Shown here one piece after another: positions 47,700 through 60,133 of a DNA stretch of 64,000 bases (position 1 is the stretch's first letter; each line of letters opens with the position of its first letter). Under the pieces are notes generated by a model. The model saw nothing but the letters and a program-made list of their open reading frames with translations, did not search any database and was not told the origin of the DNA. The stretch spans positions 66,452 through 130,451 of the forward strand of contig CAWJIC010000033.1 in assembly GCA_963842755.1 (NCBI GenBank), read 5' to 3'. The stretch is from an uncultured Chloroflexia bacterium. Its GTDB lineage: Bacteria; Chloroflexota; Limnocylindria; Limnocylindrales; CSP1-4. The position numbers were made by a program, and so were the translations under genes.

Positions 47700-48968
47700 C
47701 TAGTCCTTCGCGGAGGGGTCCGTGATGCGGCCGAGGAAGAGGATCGCGCCGGTCGGGACGTCGCGCAGGGCGAACAGGAACGGGCGATCCACCCGCAGCG
47801 TCAGGGGCTCCTCGGGAGCGCCGGTCGTGCGCATGACGACCGCCGTGGCGGCCGCCGCCTCCGTGCCCTTCTCGTCCACGTCGATGTTCGCCTGGTGGAT
47901 GACCGCCGAGATGACGAGCTGCTCCTCGGTCGTGATCCCGGAGAAGTCCGCCCGATCCGGATCGAAGGCGAGCGGCATGCCCATCGCGGCGAGCGTCGTC
48001 GCGAGGTCCGTCTTGCTCTCGATCCCGAACTTCGGCAGGGCGAGCTGGACCGGGCGGGGCTGGAGCGCTCCGGTCACCCCGGCCAGGAGGTCGGGGGTGA
48101 GGCTCGACTGGAACGCAGCCATGCTGTCCGGAACGATGATCGTCAGCGCGAGCGAGCCGCCGACGTAGGGCAGCTCCACGGCGCGCCAGCCGGTTCCCTC
48201 GGCATAGGGGAACGACTCGCTGAGCGACATCATCAGGACGTCCACGGTGGAGCCGTCCGGGCGGCTGAAGGCGCCGGGCTTCGTCGCGTCCGGGCTGAAC
48301 GGCGTCAGCCAGGGGGCCTTGAGGTAGATCGCGTTGACGAGCGTGAGGCGCGTGTCGGTCGTGATGATGCCCGGGACCAGCAGCTCCGGGATCCGCTGCA
48401 CGGTCTGCTCGTCGACCCAGCCGTTGATCTGCCGGCGGGCGGCCTCGGGATCCGCCCGGTAGTCGACCAGCCGGAGCCCCGCCCCGAAGCGCGCGGCGAG
48501 CGCGTCGAGGTAGGCCGGCACGAGGGTCATCCCGCGCTGGGCGAACGGCGCGTTCGCGATCCGCAGGGCCACCGGATATGGCTTGCCCGCGGCATCGGGG
48601 AACGTCCCGCTCCGGCCGGCGAGGGCCGCGTCGAGCGCGTTGAGCCAGCCGGCATGCTCATCGGATGCCACCGCGCCGAGGACCCCGTCCATCTCCGCCG
48701 CGGTCTCGCCGCGGGCGCCGGCTCGGGCCATCGCCAGGGCGAGCGCCACGCTCGCGGGCGAGACGACGACGTTCCCGTCGCCGGCCCCGCTCCGCCGGAG
48801 GAGCTCCAGCCCGAACCCGTTGATTGCCGTGGCCGCCGACATCGCGTCGACGGGATCGGCCGAGGCGCGCGGCGCGTTGGCGCGGGCGAGGCCGACGTCC
48901 CCGGGTCCCGTGCATGCACTCGACACGGCGAGGACCAACGCGAGCAGGGCGGCGATCTGGCGCTTCAT
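47700..48968 (-). CDS. Serpin (serine protease inhibitor) with lipoprotein signal peptide
   Basis: MKRQIAALLALVLAVSSAC lipobox. Serpin body (NVVVSPASVALALAMA, LTLVNAIYLKAPW), hinge EKGTEAAAATAVV and PFLFALRD. Confidence 0.85.
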   Translation of the reverse strand: MKRQIAALLALVLAVSSACTGPGDVGLARANAPRASADPVDAMSAATAINGFGLELLRRSGAGDGNVVVSPASVALALAMARAGARGETAAEMDGVLGAVASDEHAGWLNALDAALAGRSGTFPDAAGKPYPVALRIANAPFAQRGMTLVPAYLDALAARFGAGLRLVDYRADPEAARRQINGWVDEQTVQRIPELLVPGIITTDTRLTLVNAIYLKAPWLTPFSPDATKPGAFSRPDGSTVDVLMMSLSESFPYAEGTGWRAVELPYVGGSLALTIIVPDSMAAFQSSLTPDLLAGVTGALQPRPVQLALPKFGIESKTDLATTLAAMGMPLAFDPDRADFSGITTEEQLVISAVIHQANIDVDEKGTEAAAATAVVMRTTGAPEEPLTLRVDRPFLFALRDVPTGAILFLGRITDPSAKD

Positions 48969-49205: not shown

Positions 49206-49415
49206 ATGGCCGCGAAGGCAGGAGACCGCATCGTCGTCGAGTCGGAGAAGGTGGGCAAGGCAGCCCGGGAGGGCGAGATCCTGGAGGTGATCCAGTCGGC
49301 GACTGGCACTCGCTATCGGGTCCGCTGGGACGACGGGCATGAAAGCACGTTCCTGCCCTATGGCGGGAGTGCCCGAATCATCTCCCAGCCAGAACGCCAT
49401 CCGGCTCGCAAGTGA
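49206..49415 (+). CDS. DUF1918-like small protein
   Basis: GGAGG RBS. MAAKAGDRIVVES...GEILEV...YRVRWDDGHESTFLP matches the DUF1918 pattern. Confidence 0.6.
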   Translation: MAAKAGDRIVVESEKVGKAAREGEILEVIQSATGTRYRVRWDDGHESTFLPYGGSARIISQPERHPARK

Positions 49416-49499
49416 TCGTCGTGAGCGCGACGTCGTCGCACGAGCCTCGTCGCTCGAAGTCCAGCTGAAACCGGGACAGGATGGCGATGCGGGGCCCGG

Positions 49500-49649
49500 T
49501 CAGGGCTTCTTCGTCGGGGTCGGCTGTGTGGCGGCCCTGGGCTTCTGTTCCCTGAGGGCGGCGTCGTCGCGTTGCTTTGGCCTCTCTTCCCTTTGGAGTT
49601 TCAGTTCCTTCTGGCGCTTCTGGCGCTTCTTCTGCTTCTTCCCGGCCAT
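49500..49649 (-). CDS. Hypothetical 49-aa lysine/arginine-rich protein
   Basis: ATG preceded by AAGGAG at good spacing. MAGKKQKKRQKRQKELKLQREERPKQRDD... Confidence 0.4.
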   Translation of the reverse strand: MAGKKQKKRQKRQKELKLQREERPKQRDDAALREQKPRAATQPTPTKKP

Positions 49650-49880
49650 CGCTCGCTCCTTCACCCGGCTCCGGGCATCGATGCTGGCGGCGGTGCTGAT
49701 GTTCTCGCCGGGGTCACGGCCCGAACAGGGCCGTTGGTCGGGAAGCTCGCGTCGATTTGCCGGCGGGACGCGCTCGGACCGTCTCGCTGCGGGTGCCGCG
49801 CTCGCGCCACTCAAGGTGGCACGCCCGCCGCGTATCCTCCACGGAACGCCGACCCGGCACCGTCCAGAGGGGGACCTCGT

Positions 49881-49949
49881 TTGCCACCGGTCGTGATCGA
49901 CAACCCGATCCTCAACTCGCCGTTCCGCGAGCCGGCGCGCCATTTCCGG
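49881..49949 (+). pseudogene. 5' stub (about 23 codons) of a restriction-enzyme/helicase (type III Res-like) gene
   Basis: TTG start after GAGGGGG. (M)PPVVIDNPILNSPFREPARHFR resembles, from memory, the conserved N-terminus of Res-type DEAD/DEAH restriction helicases. The similarity ends abruptly at about 49950. Confidence 0.35.
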
Positions 49950-50125
49950 TGCGATTGCATGACGTCGCCATGCGCAGCGTGTAGGTCACGCTTCGCGGTT
50001 GGATGGGTGACTCGTTGCGTGCATATTGGCCGGATTCGCTGTTCACGAGCAGGCCCATGTTCTGGGCCCACGCCGAGGGGCAATACCAATCTCACCTGAC
50101 GCCGCAGGAAAAGATGGCGGACCTA

Positions 50126-50500
50126 TCAGACCGTCTCTTCGCCCGCGCCCTCTGCCTCGCCGCTCGGGGCGGCCGTCTCCGTCTTGCTCAGGTGGCTCGC
50201 CTCGATGATCGTCGCCCGGCCGTCGCGCTCCTTCCAGCGAGTCTGGATCAGGATCTCATCGGTCTCGCCGACGAGCCGAAGGACGACGGTGTAGCCGGAG
50301 CCGCCGCCGCGGTCGATCGAGTCGACGCTCGCCTCGTTCGACGGGAGCGGCAGGAGGGCCAGCACCTCTCCGAGATTCTGTCGAAGTTCCTTGCTGAAGT
50401 CCTCGGTCATCCGCTCGATGTCCCCGGCGACGAGCGCAGCACAGAGAGCCTCGGCGCGCTCACGAACGTCCTGTTCTTCCATCGATTGGCCCTCTAACAA
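50126..50500 (-). CDS. Hypothetical protein (acidic, about 120 aa)
   Basis: Clean ORF with non-repetitive sequence. The start is ATG 50500 or 50482. No family recognised. Confidence 0.45.
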   Translation of the reverse strand: MLEGQSMEEQDVRERAEALCAALVAGDIERMTEDFSKELRQNLGEVLALLPLPSNEASVDSIDRGGGSGYTVVLRLVGETDEILIQTRWKERDGRATIIEASHLSKTETAAPSGEAEGAGEETV

Positions 50501-50672
50501 GCGCGGATCAAGCGCAGTTGCGATCTCCCTGGGGCCACTCTACGACACTAGAAGAGCGAGGGCCCTAGACAGGCCAGCGACCCTCCTAGTCAGCGGGCTA
50601 AGTACATCACCGATGGATGCCAACCGATGGTATGTCTGACAACAGCAGCTGGAGCACGGTCAGGGGAGGAGT

Positions 50673-50715
50673 TGGTGGAGATGAAGGGACTCGAACCCCT
50701 GGCCTCCGGCGATGC
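50673..50715 (-). other. tRNA 3'-end fragment (T-arm, acceptor 3' strand, discriminator, CCA) without a 5' half; probable att-site remnant
   Basis: The minus strand reads ...aggcc AGGGG TTCGAGT CCCTT CATCTCC A CCA. No complementary GGAGATG 5' acceptor strand, D-arm or foldable anticodon arm lies upstream. Confidence 0.6.
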
Positions 50716-50870
50716 GAATCCTGCCCCACGGCCAGGTGTTGGCGGCCGGTGTAGTGGGCGTCCATGGCGATGCGCTGGGCCTCATCCGACAGCTCCCCAC
50801 GGAGGGGGTGTACCCTGCCTTCGTGGGCCCGAGCGGAACCGATGGGTGTGATGTGCCTGTGGAGAGTTCG

Positions 50871-51263
50871 ATGCAGCCGGTGAGCGTACAGATCATCACC
50901 TACGCGCCGACGGCCTTCCGCCACTGCCAGCACTGCGAGGTGGCGTTCGAGGGCATGGGCATCGGCCAGCGCGTGCAACGCGAGGCCGTCTCCAGCTCGC
51001 TGCCGGACAACCTGGCCCGTGAATACCAGGAGGTGTCCGACTGGGTCCATCGCCTGCTCGAACGCCACCCCGGCCGGCTCGCGGTCTCCGTCATCGACGC
51101 CGCTTCGATCGAGGGGGTCTGGAAGTCGCTGCGCCACCGCGTGCGCCGCTACCCGGCAACGATCGTGGCTGGGCGCGAGACGGCGATCGGTACCGATTTT
51201 GGGGCCGTCGATCGCGTCATCGACCGCCACGTGTCGTCCTCGGGAGGGAGAGGAGGGGCCTAA
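50871..51263 (+). CDS. Thioredoxin-fold-like CxxC protein (ArsD/YuzD-like topology), function unknown
   Basis: GGAG RBS. VQIITYAPTAFRHCQHCEV (beta strand then CxxC) and a later YPATIVAGRETAIG segment resemble the ArsD/YuzD-type thioredoxin fold. This is a similarity judgement only. Confidence 0.5.
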   Translation: MQPVSVQIITYAPTAFRHCQHCEVAFEGMGIGQRVQREAVSSSLPDNLAREYQEVSDWVHRLLERHPGRLAVSVIDAASIEGVWKSLRHRVRRYPATIVAGRETAIGTDFGAVDRVIDRHVSSSGGRGGA

Positions 51264-51370
51264 AGGGAAGATCCATATGGGGACGCCAGCGCGCTAGACG
51301 GCGCCGCAGGCTCACCATCCGGGTGACTGCCCCCGCCATTTGTGCGCGCTCCTTTGAACGGGAGGGTTGC

Positions 51371-53266
51371 ATGAGTTCGCTATGGGTCGTGGTCATCGGC
51401 GCGGTGGTCATCTACCTCGCCTACAACTATTACGCCCGCCGCATCGATAGGGTCGTCATTCAGTCGGACCCGAAGCGGGCGACGCCGGCCACCATGTACA
51501 TGGACGGGGCCGACTTCATGCCGACCAGCCGCTTCGTCCTGTACGGTTACCACTTCAAGTCGATCGCCGCCGCCGGCCCCATCGTCGGCGTCATCACCGC
51601 CGCCAACCTGTGGGGCTGGCTGCCATCGATCCTCTGGCTGATGATCGGCGTCACCTTCATCGGCTGGGCGAGCGACTACAGCGCGATCATGATGAGCGTG
51701 CGCAACGATGGGAACTCGCTCGCGGCGATCTCCCACCGGCTCATCAGCCCACGCACGCGGACGATCCTGTTCGTGTTCATCTTCTTCTACCTGCTGCTGC
51801 TCGGCGGTGCCTTCGTCGGGATCATGGCGGCCGTTCTGGACGCCAGGCCCGACGTCCCCTTCGGGATCCTGGTGCTGGCGGCGATGGGAATGCTCGGCGG
51901 CTACCTCATCTACCGCCGAAAGGTTGACCTGATCCGGGTCACCCTCCTCATCGTTGTCGCCACGCTGCTGGCCATGGTGCTCGGTCCGCTGGGCGTGACC
52001 TTCCAGAAGGGCCAGCCGCCGACCTGGGAGACCGGGCCGGTGAGCGGTGTCGTGCGTGGCATCAATGCCACGCTGAACGGCGACGGAAATCCCATCTACA
52101 CCGTGGTCGACCCGACAAACGCCGATCCGCGCGTTCCGCCGGTCAACCCCGAGACCGGAAAGCGGCCCTCTACCGCGGTCTTCAACGCCGCCACGGGCGA
52201 GATCAACGTCCTGCCCAGCTTCCTGTTCTGGTGCCTCTTTCTGCTGGCCTTCAGCTACCTGGGCACTAACATGGCGATCTGGCGCTTCGCGCAGCCGGTG
52301 AACTACATCGGCTTCTGGATCACCGCTCTGACCATTGGCCTCTCGGCGGTGGGCGCCATCCTGGCACCGTTCTTCCGACCGGAGGTGGCCGCCTTCAAGC
52401 TTCAGGCGTTCACGAGCTTCGCGCCGGCCGCGGCGGGGGCCATCCAGACCCTGTGGCCCATGCTCTTCGTCACCATCGCCTGCGGGGCGATCTCCGGCTG
52501 GCACGCGCTCATCGGATCGGTTGGCACCGCTCGGCAGCTTCAGTACGAGACCGATGCGCTGCCGGTCGGCGGCGGGGGTATGTTCAGCGAGAACACGCTG
52601 GGCCTCCTGTCGCTGACGGCGGTGGCGATCTCCGGCGGCGCGGGAGCCGGGGCGTTCGCCGCGGGGGTTGGCAACCTGCTGAACGTGGCAACCTTTGGGC
52701 TCGTGCCGCTCGCCTTCGGGACGGCGCTCGGCTTCGGCGCCTTCGTCGTGATCGTGCTTACCGTGGTGCAGCTCGTCTTCCGCGTCATGCGCGTGACGCT
52801 GGGCGAGTGGCTGGGCGACACGTGGATCGGCTTCAAGAACCAGCACGTCGCCATGATCATCTCATCGATCCTGGTGCTGGCCCTGGTGCTGTCCGGCACG
52901 TGGGTCTATCTGTGGCAGCTCTTCGGCGCCTCGAACCAGCTGCTGGCAGCGCTCAGCTTGCTGCTGGTGACGCTGTGGCTGGCCTCGACGCGGCGGAATC
53001 CGGCCTATGCCGGGATCCCCATGCTGTTCATGTACGTGACCACCGTGGCGGCGAGCCTGGTGACGGCGTACAACCTGTACGTCACGATCGTGATCCGCGA
53101 GGGCTCGGCGCTGATCTCCATTCTCGGCGCTTGGGCCATGATCGCGGTCTCGCTGCTGCTAGTGGGTGCGGCGCTGCTCATCGCCTTCGACGCGTGGAAG
53201 GCCTGGGGCCGCTACCGGGCCTTGCCAGCCGAGCCGGTTCCCGCGCCGGCGGCGCCGGGCGCTTAA
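51371..53266 (+). CDS. CstA (carbon starvation protein A) family transporter, divergent, with a large inserted loop
   Basis: VLYGYHFKSIAAAGPIVG, SVRNDGNSL, LFVTIACGAISGWHALIGS and LWQLFGASNQLLAA match CstA conserved blocks. Extra loop QKGQPPTWETGPV...NAATGE. Confidence 0.75.
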   Translation: MSSLWVVVIGAVVIYLAYNYYARRIDRVVIQSDPKRATPATMYMDGADFMPTSRFVLYGYHFKSIAAAGPIVGVITAANLWGWLPSILWLMIGVTFIGWASDYSAIMMSVRNDGNSLAAISHRLISPRTRTILFVFIFFYLLLLGGAFVGIMAAVLDARPDVPFGILVLAAMGMLGGYLIYRRKVDLIRVTLLIVVATLLAMVLGPLGVTFQKGQPPTWETGPVSGVVRGINATLNGDGNPIYTVVDPTNADPRVPPVNPETGKRPSTAVFNAATGEINVLPSFLFWCLFLLAFSYLGTNMAIWRFAQPVNYIGFWITALTIGLSAVGAILAPFFRPEVAAFKLQAFTSFAPAAAGAIQTLWPMLFVTIACGAISGWHALIGSVGTARQLQYETDALPVGGGGMFSENTLGLLSLTAVAISGGAGAGAFAAGVGNLLNVATFGLVPLAFGTALGFGAFVVIVLTVVQLVFRVMRVTLGEWLGDTWIGFKNQHVAMIISSILVLALVLSGTWVYLWQLFGASNQLLAALSLLLVTLWLASTRRNPAYAGIPMLFMYVTTVAASLVTAYNLYVTIVIREGSALISILGAWAMIAVSLLLVGAALLIAFDAWKAWGRYRALPAEPVPAPAAPGA

Positions 53267-53322
53267 ATCCGTATCGCTCCGCCTCGGGTGGGCCGGGCCT
53301 CCGGGCCCGACCCACCCGTCTG

Positions 53323-53991
53323 CTACTTGCTTGGCGCGACCTGGCGCGCAACCTCGCGAACGGCTCCCATCAGCCGCAGCGAGCTGATGCCATCCGCCGG
53401 CGGCAGGAGGTGGAGCTCCAGGTGCGGCACGGTCGGGCTGACCGACATCCGCCAGACGCCTCCGCTGACGCTGGCCAGCTGCTCCCACCAGCCGCGCAGC
53501 TCGTCGAGCTTCACGGTTGGGTCGTGCCGCGCCTCGAGCGCCGTCCCGTCCCACGCCCCGCTCCAGCTCGGGCCCGCGCGTTCGCCCGCCCAACGATGCC
53601 TGACATCGCCCATTGTCCAGCCCCGTGGATCAGCGAGATCAGCGCTGAAGCGCGGCGCCCGCACGAGGCGCAGGCGCAGGATCAGGAAGTCGCGGCGGCC
53701 GCGACGGTGAGCGAGCGCCCACAGCGCGCCGAGGTCACGCGGCTCGAGCACGACCAGCAGCGCGGCCTCACGGAACGGTGCCTCGGGCTGCGAGATGCGC
53801 AGCTCGACGACCGAGCTTCCCAGCCAGCGCAGGGTCGTCCGCTGGCCGAGCAGCGGGAGCCCATCCTGGAGCCAGCGCAGCAGCTCGTTGCCGCGCCGGA
53901 TGTTGCGCTGGGTGCCGAAGGCGAACCACAGCATGACGACCGCGAGTAGGGCGATCGCGAGCGAGGCGCCAAAGGCCGAGAGATCGGGCAT
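53323..53991 (-). CDS. Hypothetical N-terminally membrane-anchored protein
   Basis: MPDLSAFGASLAIALLAVVMLWFAFG TM anchor, then a soluble Arg/Trp-rich domain. Divergent from the downstream operon. Confidence 0.5.
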   Translation of the reverse strand: MPDLSAFGASLAIALLAVVMLWFAFGTQRNIRRGNELLRWLQDGLPLLGQRTTLRWLGSSVVELRISQPEAPFREAALLVVLEPRDLGALWALAHRRGRRDFLILRLRLVRAPRFSADLADPRGWTMGDVRHRWAGERAGPSWSGAWDGTALEARHDPTVKLDELRGWWEQLASVSGGVWRMSVSPTVPHLELHLLPPADGISSLRLMGAVREVARQVAPSK

Positions 53992-54091
53992 GAGTAGTGC
54001 AGGCGACTGTACGGAGCATGGCGGGCATCGGTCAAGCGGCTCTGGCGGCCGGGTGCTAGATTGGACCGATCCACATTGGTCGGGAGGGCCC

Positions 54092-54385
54092 GTGACCAAC
54101 GAGCGCGACGCGGCAGATGGAGGGCTGCGAACTGCGCTGCGCGAATTCCTCTACGGCATGACCGGGCACGAGTTCGCGCGCCAGTCGGTCGCCATGCGCG
54201 CCAACCTGGAGACGATCTTCATGGTGACCTGCGTCGGCGACATGATCGGTCTGCCGATCATTCCGCCCTACTATTCACTCCGCCTGCTGCCGTTCGTGAT
54301 CCCGCAGGTCGCCACCTGGAAGCGCCGCGTCCTGCGCGAACGCCACTTCAGCGAGGAGCACGACTATGAGTTGCATGGCGTCTAA
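54092..54385 (+). CDS. Small protein, paralog A (PPYYSLRLLP-core family), unknown function
   Basis: GTG after GGGAGGG. It shares about 60 alignable residues with the next gene, including GDMIGLPIIPPYYSLRLLPFVIPQVATWKRRVLRE. Confidence 0.6.
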   Translation: MTNERDAADGGLRTALREFLYGMTGHEFARQSVAMRANLETIFMVTCVGDMIGLPIIPPYYSLRLLPFVIPQVATWKRRVLRERHFSEEHDYELHGV

Positions 54386-54399
54386 GCCGGGAGGCAACG

Positions 54400-54690
54400 A
54401 TGGCTGACCAAGAGCAACCCGAGGAGCGCCGGGGCGGGCTGCGTGGGCTGGTCGGGAAGCTCCGGGAGGTCACCTACGGGATGGCCGCCCACGACATGAC
54501 CCGCTCCGCCCTCCGCACCCGGGCGAGCATGGAGCACCTCTTCATCCTGATCACCATGGGCGACCTGGTCGGGGTTCCGATCCTGCCACCCTACTACTCC
54601 CTGCGCCTGCTCCCCTACGTCGTGCCCCAGATCTCGACCTGGAAGCGAAGCATGCTGCGCGAGAAGGATGTGACCGATGCGATGTTCTAG
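54400..54690 (+). CDS. Small protein, paralog B (PPYYSLRLLP-core family), unknown function
   Basis: ATG after GGGAGG. GDLVGVPILPPYYSLRLLPYVVPQISTWKRSMLRE. It ends 2 nt before the ATPase gene. Confidence 0.65.
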   Translation: MADQEQPEERRGGLRGLVGKLREVTYGMAAHDMTRSALRTRASMEHLFILITMGDLVGVPILPPYYSLRLLPYVVPQISTWKRSMLREKDVTDAMF

Positions 54691-54692
54691 CC

Positions 54693-55712
54693 ATGACCGT
54701 GCAGGCTGAGGCGGGCAAGGGCCGCACGACGCCGCTGGCCGACTTCTTCAACGCCCACCCTGATCGCCACTACATCATGTTCGGTGGCAAGGGCGGGCTC
54801 GGCAAGACGACCTTCTCGGCGGCGACCGGCTACTGGCTGGCCAAGCAGGGCAAGCGCGTCCTGGTTTTCAGCGTCGACCCCCAGGCCAGCCTGTCCGACA
54901 TCTTCCAGACCGATATCTTCGGCAAGGGCCCGGTCAAGGTCATGGACAACTTGTGGGCCCAGGAGATCGACGCCGACCGCCACATCCGCGACTACCAGGA
55001 TGAGGTGCGCGCCAAGATCCTCGACATGTACGGGCTCGAGAAGGTGCCCGAGGAGATCGAGGACTACATCGCCGCCGCCAGCGCCGAGCCGGCGATGGAG
55101 GAGTCGGCGATCTTCGACGCCGTGGTCGACATCCTGTCCGAGGGCGACTACGACTACTACATCTACGACCTCGTGCCGCTGGGCCACGCCCTCTACTACC
55201 TGTCGATGGCCAAGATCTACGACGAATGGATCGGCAAGATCACCCACCTGCGTGAGGAGATGCGCGAGTACGAGGAGGTGGCGGCACGGATGCGGCGCCA
55301 GAAGGAGGTGGCCGCGGACGAGATCCTGGGCGAGCTTCAGTACATCCGGCAGCGCATCAACGCCGCCTCCCGCATCCTGACCGATCGAGATCGGACCGCC
55401 TTCTTCTTTGTGGTCGTGCCCGAGCAGATGATCCTCATCGACACCCGCAAGGCGGCCGAGATGTTCGCCCGCTTCGACGTGCCGATCGCGGGCTACATCG
55501 TCAACCGCGTCCTGCCCGAGTCACTCGACAGCGAGGGGGTGCCGGCCTACCTGCGCAGCCGGATGGAGATGCAGCGCGGCCAGTTGGCCGAGATCGAGCG
55601 GGAGCTGGGACGCGACGTGCGCGCTCAAGTCCCCGAGCTGGAGCGCGACGTCACCGGGCTGGAGATGATCGAGCGCATCGCCACGCTGATGTACGGAGAG
55701 GTGCCCCGATGA
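54693..55712 (+). CDS. ArsA/Get3-family P-loop ATPase, half-size, subunit 1
   Basis: Deviant Walker A FGGKGGLGKTT, SVDPQASL, and switch II-like YDLVPLGHALYYL (compare DTAPTGHT). No cysteines. Confidence 0.8.
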   Translation: MTVQAEAGKGRTTPLADFFNAHPDRHYIMFGGKGGLGKTTFSAATGYWLAKQGKRVLVFSVDPQASLSDIFQTDIFGKGPVKVMDNLWAQEIDADRHIRDYQDEVRAKILDMYGLEKVPEEIEDYIAAASAEPAMEESAIFDAVVDILSEGDYDYYIYDLVPLGHALYYLSMAKIYDEWIGKITHLREEMREYEEVAARMRRQKEVAADEILGELQYIRQRINAASRILTDRDRTAFFFVVVPEQMILIDTRKAAEMFARFDVPIAGYIVNRVLPESLDSEGVPAYLRSRMEMQRGQLAEIERELGRDVRAQVPELERDVTGLEMIERIATLMYGEVPR

Positions 55713-56716
55713 GCCTCGCGACCGATCCGACCCGCCTGGTCAGCACCTCGATGGCCGACTTCATGACCGCCCACGCGGACCTGCGCTACGTCTTCTTCGG
55801 CGGCAAGGGCGGGGTCGGCAAGACGGTCATGGCCGGCATGACGGCGGTCGAGCTGGCGCGCCAGGGGCGTCGTGTGCTGCTCGCCTCCACCAATCCGGTC
55901 CACTCGCTCTCCGGCCTGCTGGGCCAGGACGTCTACGGCAAGCACACCCCGGTGAGCGGCGTCGAGAACCTGTGGGCGCTGGAGATCGACACCAGCGAGG
56001 CGATCGAACGCTCCAAGCGGGAAATCCGCGAGAAGATCCAGTGGTTCCTCAAGTTCGCCGAGATCAGCACCAAGGCCGACGAGTTTGTCGAGGCGGCCAC
56101 GACCAATCCGGCGTTCGAGGAATCGGCGATGTTCGAGAACATGGTCGACCTCATGTTCCACGACGAGTACGAGGTCTACGTCTTCGACACGGCGCCCACG
56201 GCGAACGCGCGGCGCCTGCTGGGCATGAGCAAGGTTTACGGCCTGTGGGTCAGCAAGATGGTGAAGTCGCGCGAGGAGGCGCAAACCCTGCGCGAGGCCC
56301 TCTCCTTCACGAAGAAGAAGGAGGCGGACCCGCTGATGACCTACCTCGTCGACTTCCGCGGGCGGATCGAGCATGCCCGCGAGCTGCTCACCGACTCGGC
56401 CAAGACCGCCTTCTTCTTCGTGACCCTGCCCGAGGCGCTGCCCATCGCGGTGGTCCGCCGCTTCATCAACTGGTTCACCGACTTCGGGATCCCAGTCGGC
56501 GGCGTGATCGTCAACATGGTGATCGACAGCACGCAGACGAAGGGCACCGGCGAGGGCGGCGAGTTCGTCCGCAACCGAATCGCCATGCAGCAGGGCTACC
56601 TGCGCGAGATCGGCGAGACCTTCGACGGCGACGTGCGCGCGGTGGTGCCTCTGCTCGACTCCGACATCCGCGGCGTGCCGGCGCTCCAGGAGGCTGGGCG
56701 ACGCCTGTTCACCTAG
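55709..56716 (+). CDS. ArsA/Get3-family P-loop ATPase, half-size, subunit 2
   Basis: The ATG overlaps the upstream stop (ATGA). FGGKGGVGKTV, STNPVHSL, and FDTAPTANARRLL (the His of DTAPTGH is replaced). No cysteines. Confidence 0.8.
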   Translation: MSLATDPTRLVSTSMADFMTAHADLRYVFFGGKGGVGKTVMAGMTAVELARQGRRVLLASTNPVHSLSGLLGQDVYGKHTPVSGVENLWALEIDTSEAIERSKREIREKIQWFLKFAEISTKADEFVEAATTNPAFEESAMFENMVDLMFHDEYEVYVFDTAPTANARRLLGMSKVYGLWVSKMVKSREEAQTLREALSFTKKKEADPLMTYLVDFRGRIEHARELLTDSAKTAFFFVTLPEALPIAVVRRFINWFTDFGIPVGGVIVNMVIDSTQTKGTGEGGEFVRNRIAMQQGYLREIGETFDGDVRAVVPLLDSDIRGVPALQEAGRRLFT

Positions 56717-56844: not shown

Positions 56845-57480
56845 TCAGACGAGCCGACGATCGGCGGCCCAGCGGCTGAGCTCGTAGCGGTTCGATAGCT
56901 GGAGCTTGCGCAGGACGGCCGAGACATGGGTCTCGACGGTCTTGATCGCGATCCCGAGCTCGTGGGCGACTTCCTTGTAGGCGTAGCCCCGAGCGATATA
57001 CCGGAGCACTTCGCGTTCCCGGGTCGACAGCAGGTCGAGCTCCGGATCGGCCGGCGCTGGAGCCTCGCGACCGAAGGCGTCGAGCACGAAGCCGGCCAGG
57101 CGCGGCGAGAAGACGGCGTCGCCGTCGTGCACCCGGCGTACGGCAAGATCGAGCTCGGCCGGTGAGATGGACTTCGTCACGTAGCCTCGGGCGCCGGCCC
57201 GGATGACGTCGATGACGTCCTGGGCGGCATCAGAGACCGAGAGCGCCAGGAACCGTACGTTCGGCTGCTTCGCGCACACGGCCTCGATGACGGCCCGGCC
57301 ACCACCGCCGGGCATGTGGACGTCAATCAGGACGACGTCCGGCGCGCTGGCAAGGATCGCGGGAATGGCCTCCTCGACGGTGGCCGCATCACCCACGATC
57401 TCGACGCCGCCCTTCAGCTCCGAACGGACCCCCGACCGGAACAGCTCGTGGTCGTCGACGATGAACACGCGCACGCTCAC
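56845..57480 (-). CDS. Response regulator, NarL/LuxR family
   Basis: VFIVDDH...DVVLIDVHMPG receiver domain and an LSTREREVLRYIARGYAYKEVA HTH. Confidence 0.9.
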   Translation of the reverse strand: MSVRVFIVDDHELFRSGVRSELKGGVEIVGDAATVEEAIPAILASAPDVVLIDVHMPGGGGRAVIEAVCAKQPNVRFLALSVSDAAQDVIDVIRAGARGYVTKSISPAELDLAVRRVHDGDAVFSPRLAGFVLDAFGREAPAPADPELDLLSTREREVLRYIARGYAYKEVAHELGIAIKTVETHVSAVLRKLQLSNRYELSRWAADRRLV

Positions 57481-58754
57481 TGGCCGAGCCTCGGCAGTCG
57501 GATGACCACTTCGGTACCGCGCCCCGGTTCGCTCCGGACCTCCGCGGTTCCACCATGCCGCTCCATTCGGCGAACGATCAAATCCGCGATCCCGCGCCTG
57601 TCCTCGGGGACCGCGCCCGGATCGAAGCCGGCACCCTCGTCACGGACGAACGCGCTGACCTGCGTGTCCTCGACCTCGAGGTAGACAGAGACTTCGTCGA
57701 CCCCAGAGTGTTTCGCCGCGTTCAGGGTGGCCTCGCTGCACGCCCCCATGAGCGCGCGGAGTTCCTCGTCGAGCTCGAGGTCGCCGACCACGATCGCCTC
57801 GACCTTGACGTGATGGCTGCGTTCCACCCGACCGGCCATCGAGTCGAGCGCATCGCGCAGCGTGACGCCCCGGACGCTCGGAGCCCGACCGAAGAGCCAG
57901 GCGCGAAGCTCCCGTTCCTGGGTTCGAGCGAGGCTTGCCATCTCACGGGGCTCGTGGGAGCGTTGGATAAGCGCCAGGGTTTGAAGGACAGAGTCGTGGA
58001 GGTGCGCCGCCATCTCCGCCCGTGCCTCGGAACGAATCCGGCTGTTGCGCTCCTCCATCAGCTCGCCGGCCAGTCGCCAGACCCATGGCCCAGCGAGGAG
58101 GGCCAGGCCGCCGACGGTGACGATGACCGCCAGGACGACGTTGGCGGCCGCCGAGAGGGAGGTGGTCGCGGCCAGGAAGACCGCCATGCCACCCACGATC
58201 AGGGCGCTCCCGAAGAGGATGCGCGGCAGGGAGGCGCGGCCGCTGATCATGGCCTCGATCGGGCTCCTGAAGCTGGCCGGATCCCAGCGGCCGCGGCCCT
58301 CGTCCGTGCCGCGCGCCCACAGGATGGCGAAGCCGATCGCCGCTAACGAGGCCGGCCAGCCCAGCTCCCAACCGAACCACAGCCCGGTGACGAGGAAGAG
58401 CGTGGCCACACCGACCAGGATCAGGCTCATCCCAACGAGCTGCTGTGGCGACGGTCGAGGCAGCGGTCGCCGCGTCGCCGCATCCGTCTCGTCGGCCGCA
58501 TCCGCCACCTCGACCGGGGCCAGGAGCCAGAGCAGCAGGTACACGATGACCCCGAAGCCAGCGGCAAAGGCCAGGATGACGAACGCAAGCCGGACAACGA
58601 GCGGCTCGATGCGCAGATGCCGGGCGACGCCGGCGGCCACGCCGGCAACGACTCGATCCGTTCGGCCGCGACGCAGGCTCGGGCGAGCGGTCGCGATCGC
58701 GGTCACGGTCGTCGGCTGCGGCTCGATCTCTGCCATGGACCGTGATGTTCCCAT
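57477..58754 (-). CDS. PspC-domain sensor histidine kinase (LiaS-like)
   Basis: N-terminal PspC domain (RTDRVVAGVAAGVARHLRIEPLVVRLAFVILAF), TM segments, HLHDSVLQTLALIQ H-box and an HATPase. The start is ATG 58754 or 58736. Confidence 0.85.
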   Translation of the reverse strand: MGTSRSMAEIEPQPTTVTAIATARPSLRRGRTDRVVAGVAAGVARHLRIEPLVVRLAFVILAFAAGFGVIVYLLLWLLAPVEVADAADETDAATRRPLPRPSPQQLVGMSLILVGVATLFLVTGLWFGWELGWPASLAAIGFAILWARGTDEGRGRWDPASFRSPIEAMISGRASLPRILFGSALIVGGMAVFLAATTSLSAAANVVLAVIVTVGGLALLAGPWVWRLAGELMEERNSRIRSEARAEMAAHLHDSVLQTLALIQRSHEPREMASLARTQERELRAWLFGRAPSVRGVTLRDALDSMAGRVERSHHVKVEAIVVGDLELDEELRALMGACSEATLNAAKHSGVDEVSVYLEVEDTQVSAFVRDEGAGFDPGAVPEDRRGIADLIVRRMERHGGTAEVRSEPGRGTEVVIRLPRLGQ

Positions 58755-58861
58755 AGGGACGGCGCGGGGCGCGATGGGTGAAGACCCTGAGCGCGACCTT
58801 CGAAGGGTCAGGGTTGGATCGGGGACTCCACCGATGGCGCCGGGATGAGCGTTCCACGACC

Positions 58862-60133
58862 ATGGCTGCCATGACGAGCGAACAACCGGGGACTGCACTC
58901 CACCCTGACGGCACCCCCAGCGAAGCGCGCCGTCTCCGACGCCGGACGACCGATCGCGTGATCGGCGGCGTCGCGGGTGGGGTCGCCGACTACCTCAACA
59001 TCGATCCGCTGCTGCTTCGAGTGGCGTTCGCGGGGTTGATGATCTTCGGTGGAGCCGGACTCCTGCTTTACGTCGTCGCGTGGCTCCTGATCCCCGCATG
59101 CGGGCGCGACGATTCGATCGTCCAGGAGTGGTTGGCCCGTCTCAGGGCTCGGTTCGGGAGCACCGGAACCGCAATCCTCGTCCTGATCGCGGTCATCCTT
59201 GGCGGGCTCTGGCTGGCCGGTCAGGCTGAACCGTGCATGGTGTCCGTCGACGATCCCTATTCCGGGCAGTGCGCGAGCAACGGCTTTGGCTGGCTGTTCG
59301 ACTACGAGCCCATTCGTCTGCGCGACGCCGCATTGATCGCGATCGCGATCATCGGTGTCGGGATCGTTGTGCTCCGCTGGCGGGAAGGGTCCGCACGTCC
59401 GGCGACCGCGATGGGCGGTGTGCCGACCCAGGCGACCGCCCCAGGTGCCGCGATCGAGACGGCCGCGGAGGCCATGCTCCCGACCGCGGGTGCGATCAAG
59501 GCCCGCCCAGGCGAATCGCTCCCGCGTCCGCGATCGCCACTCGGCTGGTACGTGCTCGCTGCTGTGCTCGTCGCGGTCGGCCTCCTGGCCGTCGTCGGCA
59601 ACGCGCCTGGACTTGACGTCGCGCTCGGCCAGTATTTCGGAGCGGGTCTCGCGGTGCTCGGCATCGGACTGGTCGTGGGTGCCTGGTGGGGCCGAGCAAG
59701 GCTGCCGATCCTGCTGGGTCTGTTCGTTCTGCCAGTTGCGGCAACGGCGGCGTTCATCAACGTGCCGCTCGATGGCGGGTTCGCCGATCAGGCGTTCCAG
59801 CCGAAGACGGTCGGGGAGCTGCGCACCGACTACCGTCTGGCGGGCGGCGAGATCCGCCTCGACCTGACGGACCTGCCAGCCGGCGGCGGCCCCATCGTGC
59901 TCAACGCCAGCGTGGGCGTGGGGCTCCTGGTCGTGGTCGTTCCCGACGACGCGAGGCTCGTGCTTGATGCCCGGGTCAGCGGAGGCCGCCTTTCCCTGTT
60001 CGGCAACCGCCAGATCGGCACCGGCCTCGCCGACCGCGTCGAGCGGCTGACAGGACTGGGTCCGCAGCTGGTCCTGAACCTGGAGGCCGGGATCGGCGAG
60101 GTGCTCGTTCTGACCGCATCGGACGGAGGCTGA
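58862..60133 (+). CDS. PspC-domain membrane protein with C-terminal LiaF-like beta domain
   Basis: TTDRVIGGVAGGVADYLNIDPLLLRVAFAGLMIF PspC domain and multiple TM segments. Divergent from the PspC kinase. Confidence 0.8.
   Translation: MAAMTSEQPGTALHPDGTPSEARRLRRRTTDRVIGGVAGGVADYLNIDPLLLRVAFAGLMIFGGAGLLLYVVAWLLIPACGRDDSIVQEWLARLRARFGSTGTAILVLIAVILGGLWLAGQAEPCMVSVDDPYSGQCASNGFGWLFDYEPIRLRDAALIAIAIIGVGIVVLRWREGSARPATAMGGVPTQATAPGAAIETAAEAMLPTAGAIKARPGESLPRPRSPLGWYVLAAVLVAVGLLAVVGNAPGLDVALGQYFGAGLAVLGIGLVVGAWWGRARLPILLGLFVLPVAATAAFINVPLDGGFADQAFQPKTVGELRTDYRLAGGEIRLDLTDLPAGGGPIVLNASVGVGLLVVVVPDDARLVLDARVSGGRLSLFGNRQIGTGLADRVERLTGLGPQLVLNLEAGIGEVLVLTASDGG

Follow-up and report, generated by a model that had tools for sequence, protein, structure and literature searches.

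Genes at the locus

The window, meaning the whole 64,000-nucleotide stretch of DNA from an uncultured Chloroflexia bacterium that was analyzed, carries two small adjacent genes, designated smallA and smallB, that are located between genes for a CstA-family permease and two ATPases of the ArsA/Get3 family. The features of the region are listed below by position in the window.

50871-51263, forward strand: thioredoxin-fold HCxHCE protein, 130 aa, an optional cluster member (assigned by AlphaFold2, Foldseek and its motif)
51323-53266, forward strand: CstA-family permease (PF02554, 6.4e-102)
53323-54099, reverse strand: divergent N-anchored protein with a single strong TM helix near its N terminus (Kyte-Doolittle 2.38, residues 43-61)
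54092-54385, forward strand: smallA, DUF7990/CstX paralog A, 97 aa, GTG start, His-rich tail ..EEHDYELHGV
54400-54690, forward strand: smallB, DUF7990/CstX paralog B, 96 aa, ATG start, tail ..KDVTDAMF
54693-55712, forward strand: ArsA1, single-domain ArsA/Get3-family ATPase, 339 aa (PF02374, 3.6e-71; TIGR00345)
55709-56716, forward strand: ArsA2, paralogous ArsA/Get3-family ATPase, 335 aa (PF02374, 9.2e-66)

Spacing is tight, with gaps of 14 nucleotides between smallA and smallB and 2 nucleotides between smallB and ArsA1, and an overlap of 4 nucleotides between ArsA1 and ArsA2. Each small gene is preceded by a ribosome binding site, GGGAGGG (54082-54088) ahead of the GTG of smallA and GGGAGG (54389-54394) ahead of the ATG of smallB. 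The true start of the permease gene may be an ATG located 48 nucleotides downstream, and the N-anchored protein likely starts at Met37, near position 53991. Neither the N-anchored protein nor the HCxHCE protein matched any Pfam or NCBIfam family. The two ORFs, the amino acid motif that they were originally said to share, and both DNA strings that had been quoted to illustrate their synonymous differences were all verified in the sequence.

Divergence and selection

The two small proteins align without gaps, with 41 identities over 86 positions (48%; E = 2e-33, BLASTP). Values for divergence between the two genes were calculated by the Nei-Gojobori method (pS = 0.48, dS 0.78, dN = 0.46), and dN for the 71-codon core is 0.33. 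Given this synonymous and nonsynonymous divergence, the copies are old, and the original prediction was correct in stating that the duplication is not recent; the A and B clades described below each span five phyla. When the genes were compared with their nearest orthologs (L011 and L012), dN/dS ranged from 0.10 to 0.19, and for smallB against its nearest relatives from 0.10 to 0.18. Across all pairs of orthologs with dS from 0.05 to 2, the median ratio was lower for B (0.18) than for A (0.34), and smallB is the more conserved paralog of the pair. These ratios bear out the earlier claim that purifying selection acts on the peptide. smallA and smallB are real genes under purifying selection that arose from an old duplication.

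Family membership and orthogroups

Homologs beyond the source genome, on whose existence the original prediction had hinged, were readily found. Searches of a collection of 5.8 billion proteins returned 4881 homologs with smallB as the query and 1052 with smallA, and a profile search recovered >7000 DUF7990 proteins; the homologs fall into 436 clusters at 50% identity. PF25952 (DUF7990) is pre-annotated on all homologs among the matches listed, and a precomputed PF25952.1 assignment is carried by both a protein 100% identical to smallA (P0121) and one 97% identical to smallB (P0002). The Pfam copy that was searched with smallA and smallB did not contain the PF25952 model and gave no match, and their assignment to this family is made indirectly, through the annotation of these near-identical sequences. 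The public names of the homologs are “hypothetical protein” throughout. No match was obtained by tblastn in a plasmid collection, and a literature search found no papers on “cory-CC-star”, “PF25952” or “DUF7990”. The window proteins are thus not new, as they belong to a catalogued family (DUF7990, CstX, a relative of cory-CC-star). Compared with the published account of CstX (discussed below), the additions made here are the definition of A and B orthogroups, each with a fixed tail, the degeneracy of ArsA2, the fusions to a thioredoxin domain, and doubt as to whether the TM segment is genuine.

An alignment of 22 diverse sequences has 21 invariant columns, including those of YGM, GD, G.P, PP.Y, R.LP and W.R, and the family has a conserved basic helix with the sequence W-K-R-x-x-L-R-E-[RK]. 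A-type tails conform to [H/E]E[FYH]xLHG[VLI], contain a mean of 2.6 His in their last 12 residues, and end in LHG[VLI] in 69 of 80 sequences. B-type tails conform to KD[VLI][ST]DAMF, lack both Cys and His, and end in DAMF in 65 of 81 sequences. The statement that the tails have diverged is therefore true of the two paralogs relative to each other, but does not hold within the orthogroups, where the tails are conserved.

A maximum-likelihood tree of DUF7990 proteins contains a CC-type clade (support 100/100), a B clade (98/97), and A-type sequences in two further groups, with both types supplied once by each two-copy locus. Chloroflexota, Actinomycetota, Acidobacteriota, Pseudomonadota and Myxococcota are all represented in the A clade as well as in the B clade. 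Judging from the tree, the A/B split is ancient.

Additional copies were observed in some genomes. At four loci (L117, L128, L129 and L134) in genomes of one Chloroflexota family (G006, G112, G218 and G298), ArsA2 is directly followed by a third DUF7990 paralog, the tail of which is B-like (RD[VL][TM]DA[IL]F). Lone extra copies are present at L121, L122, L124 and L133, and the genomes concerned also hold the full cluster.

A conserved cluster of six to seven genes

Gene order was compared in 80 loci from named MAGs of Chloroflexota, Actinomycetota, Acidobacteriota, Pseudomonadota and Myxococcota that were picked by similarity. The order CstA (forward), anchored protein (reverse), A, B, ArsA1, ArsA2 is kept almost without exception. 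The CstA permease was found in 71 of the 80 loci and the N-anchored protein in 74, and the latter is also kept where clusters are rearranged; the rearranged clusters L100, L102, L119 and L127 retain all seven parts. The gene for the HCxHCE protein is present in 34 of 90 loci.

When Chloroflexota were sampled without selection, the DUF7990 family was detected in 26 of 301 genomes. It was absent from all 15 other genomes of the taxonomic family to which the source organism belongs. In 16 of 20 regions surrounding matches from this unselected sample, DUF7990 adjoins an ArsA1-ArsA2 pair, and CstA is present in those regions wherever the contig is long enough. The unit is a CstA cluster of six to seven genes that recurs in at least five phyla.

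The two ATPases

ArsA1 and ArsA2 are 37% identical and both carry the deviant Walker A sequence GGKGGxGKT. Their scores against TIGR00345 (233.5 and 219.5 bits; cut-off 135), together with the PF02374 matches, assign both proteins by profile to the TRC40/GET3/ArsA family, and both fall below the ArsA equivalog cut-offs. The ArsA arsenite pump has two domains in ~590 aa and metalloid-binding cysteines, whereas ArsA1 and ArsA2 each consist of a single domain and have no Cys, either in the window proteins or in most of their orthologs.

ArsA1 keeps a canonical P-loop as well as the switch I Asp (SVDPQASL) and the GH motif (DLVPLGH). All 29 ArsA2 orthologs examined carry Asn instead of the switch I Asp (STNPVHSL), and in all of them DTAPTGH has become DTAPTAN. 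Single-copy ATPases keep the canonical residues (STDPAHSL, DTAPTGH). Due to the loss of both the Asp and the GH motif in every ortholog, ArsA2 is probably impaired in hydrolysis and would act as the non-hydrolysing partner in an asymmetric dimer. Its degeneracy points to an obligate dimer of this kind with one active site.

In a tree of the ATPases, the single-copy proteins, ArsA1 and ArsA2 form separate clades (SH-aLRT 100, 98 and 97, respectively). The shape of this tree is the same as that of the DUF7990 tree, which separates CC-type, A and B proteins. The ratio of DUF7990 to ATPase genes is 2:2 in 29 loci and 1:1 in five proteobacterial loci.

Hydrophobic core and predicted structure

The hydrophobic stretch spans approximately residues 44 to 65 of 96; a Pro-rich turn, the basic helix and the conserved polar tail come after it. 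The Kyte-Doolittle maximum for a 19-residue span is 1.62-1.70 in smallA and smallB, which is at the usual threshold for a TM segment. An invariant Asp (as Gly-Asp) and several Pro are located within the segment, and the maximum in CC-type homologs is only 1.04-1.37. Because of the threshold hydropathy, the internal Asp and the low values for the CC-type relatives, a plain transmembrane helix is unlikely on sequence grounds, in agreement with the earlier view that the core is unusual for a simple TM helix.

An AlphaFold2 model of the monomer built with 107 sequences is of low confidence (pLDDT 63.7, pTM 0.31) and places a helix at residues 13-57, a loop at 58-63 (GVPILP), and further helices at 64-74 and 76-95. 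Such low confidence is common for subunits that require their partners in order to fold. The re-entrant or interfacial element suggested earlier for the core is possible, but gained no support from this model. Foldseek searches with this low-confidence model returned only meaningless matches (E > 1), and a PDB sequence profile search using the family alignment gave nothing at E ≤ 10.

Thioredoxin-like partner and gene fusions

The protein encoded at 50871-51263 has a near-invariant H-C-x-H-C-E motif. Its AlphaFold2 model (pLDDT 75.5, pTM 0.68) has a thioredoxin fold, and the top Foldseek matches to the model are all thioredoxins. Selenocysteine (UxxC) variants of this protein were looked for in the 90 loci and none was found.

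In several lineages, a thioredoxin-like domain is fused to the N terminus of DUF7990 (P0334, P0308 and P0258); over 127 aa, P0334 is 29% identical to the CxxC protein of the window (E = 6e-18). Read-through fusions of A and B also exist (P0393 and others). When P0393 was aligned using MAFFT, all single-domain sequences were placed on one half of the fusion and the other half was left without depth. Weak evidence for a fusion between a C-terminal fragment of CstA and DUF7990 comes from a single read-level record (P0295).

Relatives and known systems

Using hmmscan, smallA and smallB scored 29.9 and 31.3 bits (E ~1e-7) against the NCBIfam model NF041419 (cory-CC-star), for which the cut-off is 80. 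The window proteins lack a C-terminal Cys-Cys and end in ..LHGV and ..DAMF. Membership in the NF041419 equivalog was rejected on account of these scores and termini. Alignment of the two families with hhalign gave a probability of 95.4% (E = 1.7e-8 over 73 columns), which places smallA, smallB and cory-CC-star in one superfamily, by profile comparison, as distant relatives.

In a sample of 401 genomes of Pseudomonadota (the phylum of locus L059), a single distant match was found in each of five genomes. At all five loci (L110-L114), CstA is followed by a small protein with a Cys-Cys-stop terminus and then by one ArsA-like ATPase. These small proteins are true cory-CC-star members (127-141 bits against NF041419). 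Like the window family, cory-CC-star thus sits beside cstA and an ArsA-like ATPase, but it has NPxxYY and LELxP where the window family has LPPYY and LRLLP, it is less hydrophobic, and a single copy of it is paired with a single canonical ATPase.

YbdD of E. coli (PF04328; ybdD of strain K-12 is at L115:4183-4380) resembles CC-star in that it is small, is encoded directly downstream of cstA, and ends in ..GGARCC-stop. The operon has no ATPase, however, and the CC tail of YbdD is missing from the window proteins. Homology between CC-star and YbdD was rejected (hhalign probability 0.4%), and the Cys-Cys terminus that they share may reflect convergence on a CstA-associated CC tail.

Castillo & Saier (Int J Microbiol 2010:187373, PMC2963123) described 26 operons of cstA with an arsA homolog, of which 24 carry a protein of ~90 aa termed CstX. 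Some archaeal operons also carry a ~210-aa protein with a single TMS, termed CstY. The ArsA homologs are single-domain proteins of about 330 aa, and both paired CstX paralogs and adjacent ArsA pairs were noted in two organisms each. From co-evolution, these authors proposed that CstX links transport by CstA to the ArsA-homolog ATPase (PMC2963123). smallA and smallB resemble CstX in size (97 and 96 aa) and in having CstA upstream and ArsA1/ArsA2 downstream, an arrangement that is conserved in 80 loci. Their identification as CstX is made by size and context, and the link by sequence runs through the CC-star proteins of proteobacterial cstA-arsA loci. Note that CstX was scored as having a single TMS (PMC2963123), whereas the segment in the window pair is at the hydropathy threshold with an invariant Asp inside. 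The N-anchored protein is possibly the counterpart of CstY, which it resembles in size and in its single TM helix. Culturable organisms listed by these authors as having the simpler module include Pseudomonas stutzeri, Psychrobacter, Idiomarina and Thermococcus kodakarensis, and a control search in the present analysis gave a match in Haloferax volcanii. The name CstX was found in the literature in the 2010 paper only, and no later experimental work on the module was found.

A further comparison is with Get1 and Get2, whose cytosolic helices bind Get3, for example through the R14-E15-R16-R17 motif of Get2 (PMC8530227). Short helices with basic motifs tie a Get3-family dimer to a membrane partner in that system, and DUF7990 has its W-K-R-x-x-L-R-E-[RK] helix. 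The likeness is in logic only, as no homology was found, and binding by the DUF7990 helix is at most a prediction. Get1 and Get2 are also integral subunits of an insertase, whereas the membrane partner in the window is the CstA permease.

Proposed role of the small proteins

smallA and smallB may well be coupling subunits that link the asymmetric ArsA1/ArsA2 dimer to the CstA-family permease, a reading to which we give an even chance. A and B would be small helical proteins that are either cytoplasmic or attached to the membrane surface, and that contact protein partners through the hydrophobic Pro/Tyr core and the basic W-K-R-x-x-L-R-E helix. Docking sites would differ between the two copies owing to their paralog-specific C-terminal tails, such that each small protein is matched to a different side of the ATPase dimer. 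Together, A and B would couple the dimer of catalytic ArsA1 and degenerate ArsA2 to the permease, and ATP binding or hydrolysis would then drive or gate transport. In this scheme we infer physical binding, the pairing of partners and an effect on transport.

Coupling is supported by the synteny of CstA, the anchored protein, A, B, ArsA1 and ArsA2, by the tight gene spacing, and by the parallel splits of DUF7990 and the ATPases, with copy numbers of 2:2 or 1:1. An asymmetric ATPase dimer fits two small partners that are not equivalent. Fusions to the thioredoxin-like protein and between A and B would place the N terminus of DUF7990 beside cytoplasmic partners. The core does not appear to be a generic TM segment, and the proposal of Castillo & Saier was made independently. 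Against coupling, copy number is not strictly 1:1, due to the third B-like or lone extra copies in some Chloroflexota; the hydropathy of A and B is at the TM threshold (1.6-1.7), which makes insertion into the membrane possible; and the AlphaFold2 monomer is of low confidence.

A more specific version is possible but should be considered tentative. Here, A and B would be non-equivalent coupling subunits that dock a Get3-like heterodimer with one active site onto a secondary carrier of the CstA family, forming a previously uncharacterised transporter that is driven or gated by ATP. The tails (His-rich ..LHGV versus ..DAMF) would set which ATPase subunit is bound by each.

A different relationship between the same proteins would exist if A and B were membrane-destined cargo, shaped as a hairpin or like a tail anchor, that is captured by ArsA1/ArsA2 and delivered to the membrane or to CstA. 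The solved structures nearest to ArsA1 are indeed archaeal Get3 homologs (3ug6, E = 1e-61; 3zq6, 3.5e-59), the segment in A and B is at the TM threshold (1.6-1.7), and a single TMS was given to CstX (PMC2963123). However, the TMD of a tail-anchored Get3 client lies within ~30 residues of the C terminus, whereas the segment in smallA and smallB is not C-terminal and is followed by ~35-40 mostly polar residues that end in the conserved tail. The segment also contains the invariant Asp and several Pro, and CC-type homologs reach only 1.04-1.37. As for the ATPases, the Met-rich lid of M. jannaschii Get3 (3ug6) aligns with a region of ArsA1 and ArsA2 that is shorter and highly charged, and neither protein has the Zn-binding CxxC of Get3. 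Due to the position and chemistry of the segment and the charged lid, we regard a role as cargo as unlikely.

By analogy with ArsD, ArsA and ArsB, the tails and the thioredoxin-like HCxHCE protein could instead bind a thiophilic or metal substrate, or reduce it, before passing it to the ATPase and permease. Residues suited to such a role include the Cys-Cys terminus at five of five CC-star loci, the His content of A-type tails (2.6 on average among the 12 terminal residues), and the near-invariant HCxHCE of the thioredoxin-fold partner, which is fused to DUF7990 in several lineages. The terminus ..RCC is also found in E. coli YbdD, whose gene directly follows cstA, although homology of YbdD to the family is not detectable (0.4% by hhalign). 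The B tail, however, has neither Cys nor His even though B is the more conserved paralog, the scarcity of Cys in ArsA1/ArsA2 and their orthologs leaves no ArsA-type metalloid site, and the thioredoxin-like gene is present in only 34 of 90 loci. Handling of a ligand by these tails is therefore an improbable explanation.

Finally, although spurious ORFs are plentiful in high-GC DNA, the idea that smallA and smallB are chance open frames rather than genes is refuted by their conservation, with thousands of known homologs, dN/dS of 0.1-0.2, a ribosome binding site for each, and synteny kept across phyla.

The cstA-cstX-arsA module extends from archaea to Proteobacteria, and >7000 DUF7990 proteins are catalogued. 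[quoted passage not shown] For study, the two-copy version is a convenient place to start, since its parts are already differentiated into a catalytic and a degenerate ATPase and two types of tail.

Other observations in the region

Genes for a PspC-domain histidine kinase and a NarL-type response regulator (56845-58898, reverse strand) are convergent to the operon. The regulator is present in only 2 of 80 loci, which puts the kinase/regulator pair outside the conserved cluster. Between positions 48000 and 58000, ARAGORN found no tRNA gene, and no Rfam family, including riboswitches, was matched at the gathering score. GC content is 67.1% in the cluster (49400-56700) and 71.2% elsewhere, and the cluster includes the lowest 3 of 117 intervals used for this calculation. 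Recent horizontal import of the cluster was considered and rejected, as GC3 values (0.86-0.95) are like those of neighbouring genes. The low GC content of the cluster therefore stems from amino acid composition.
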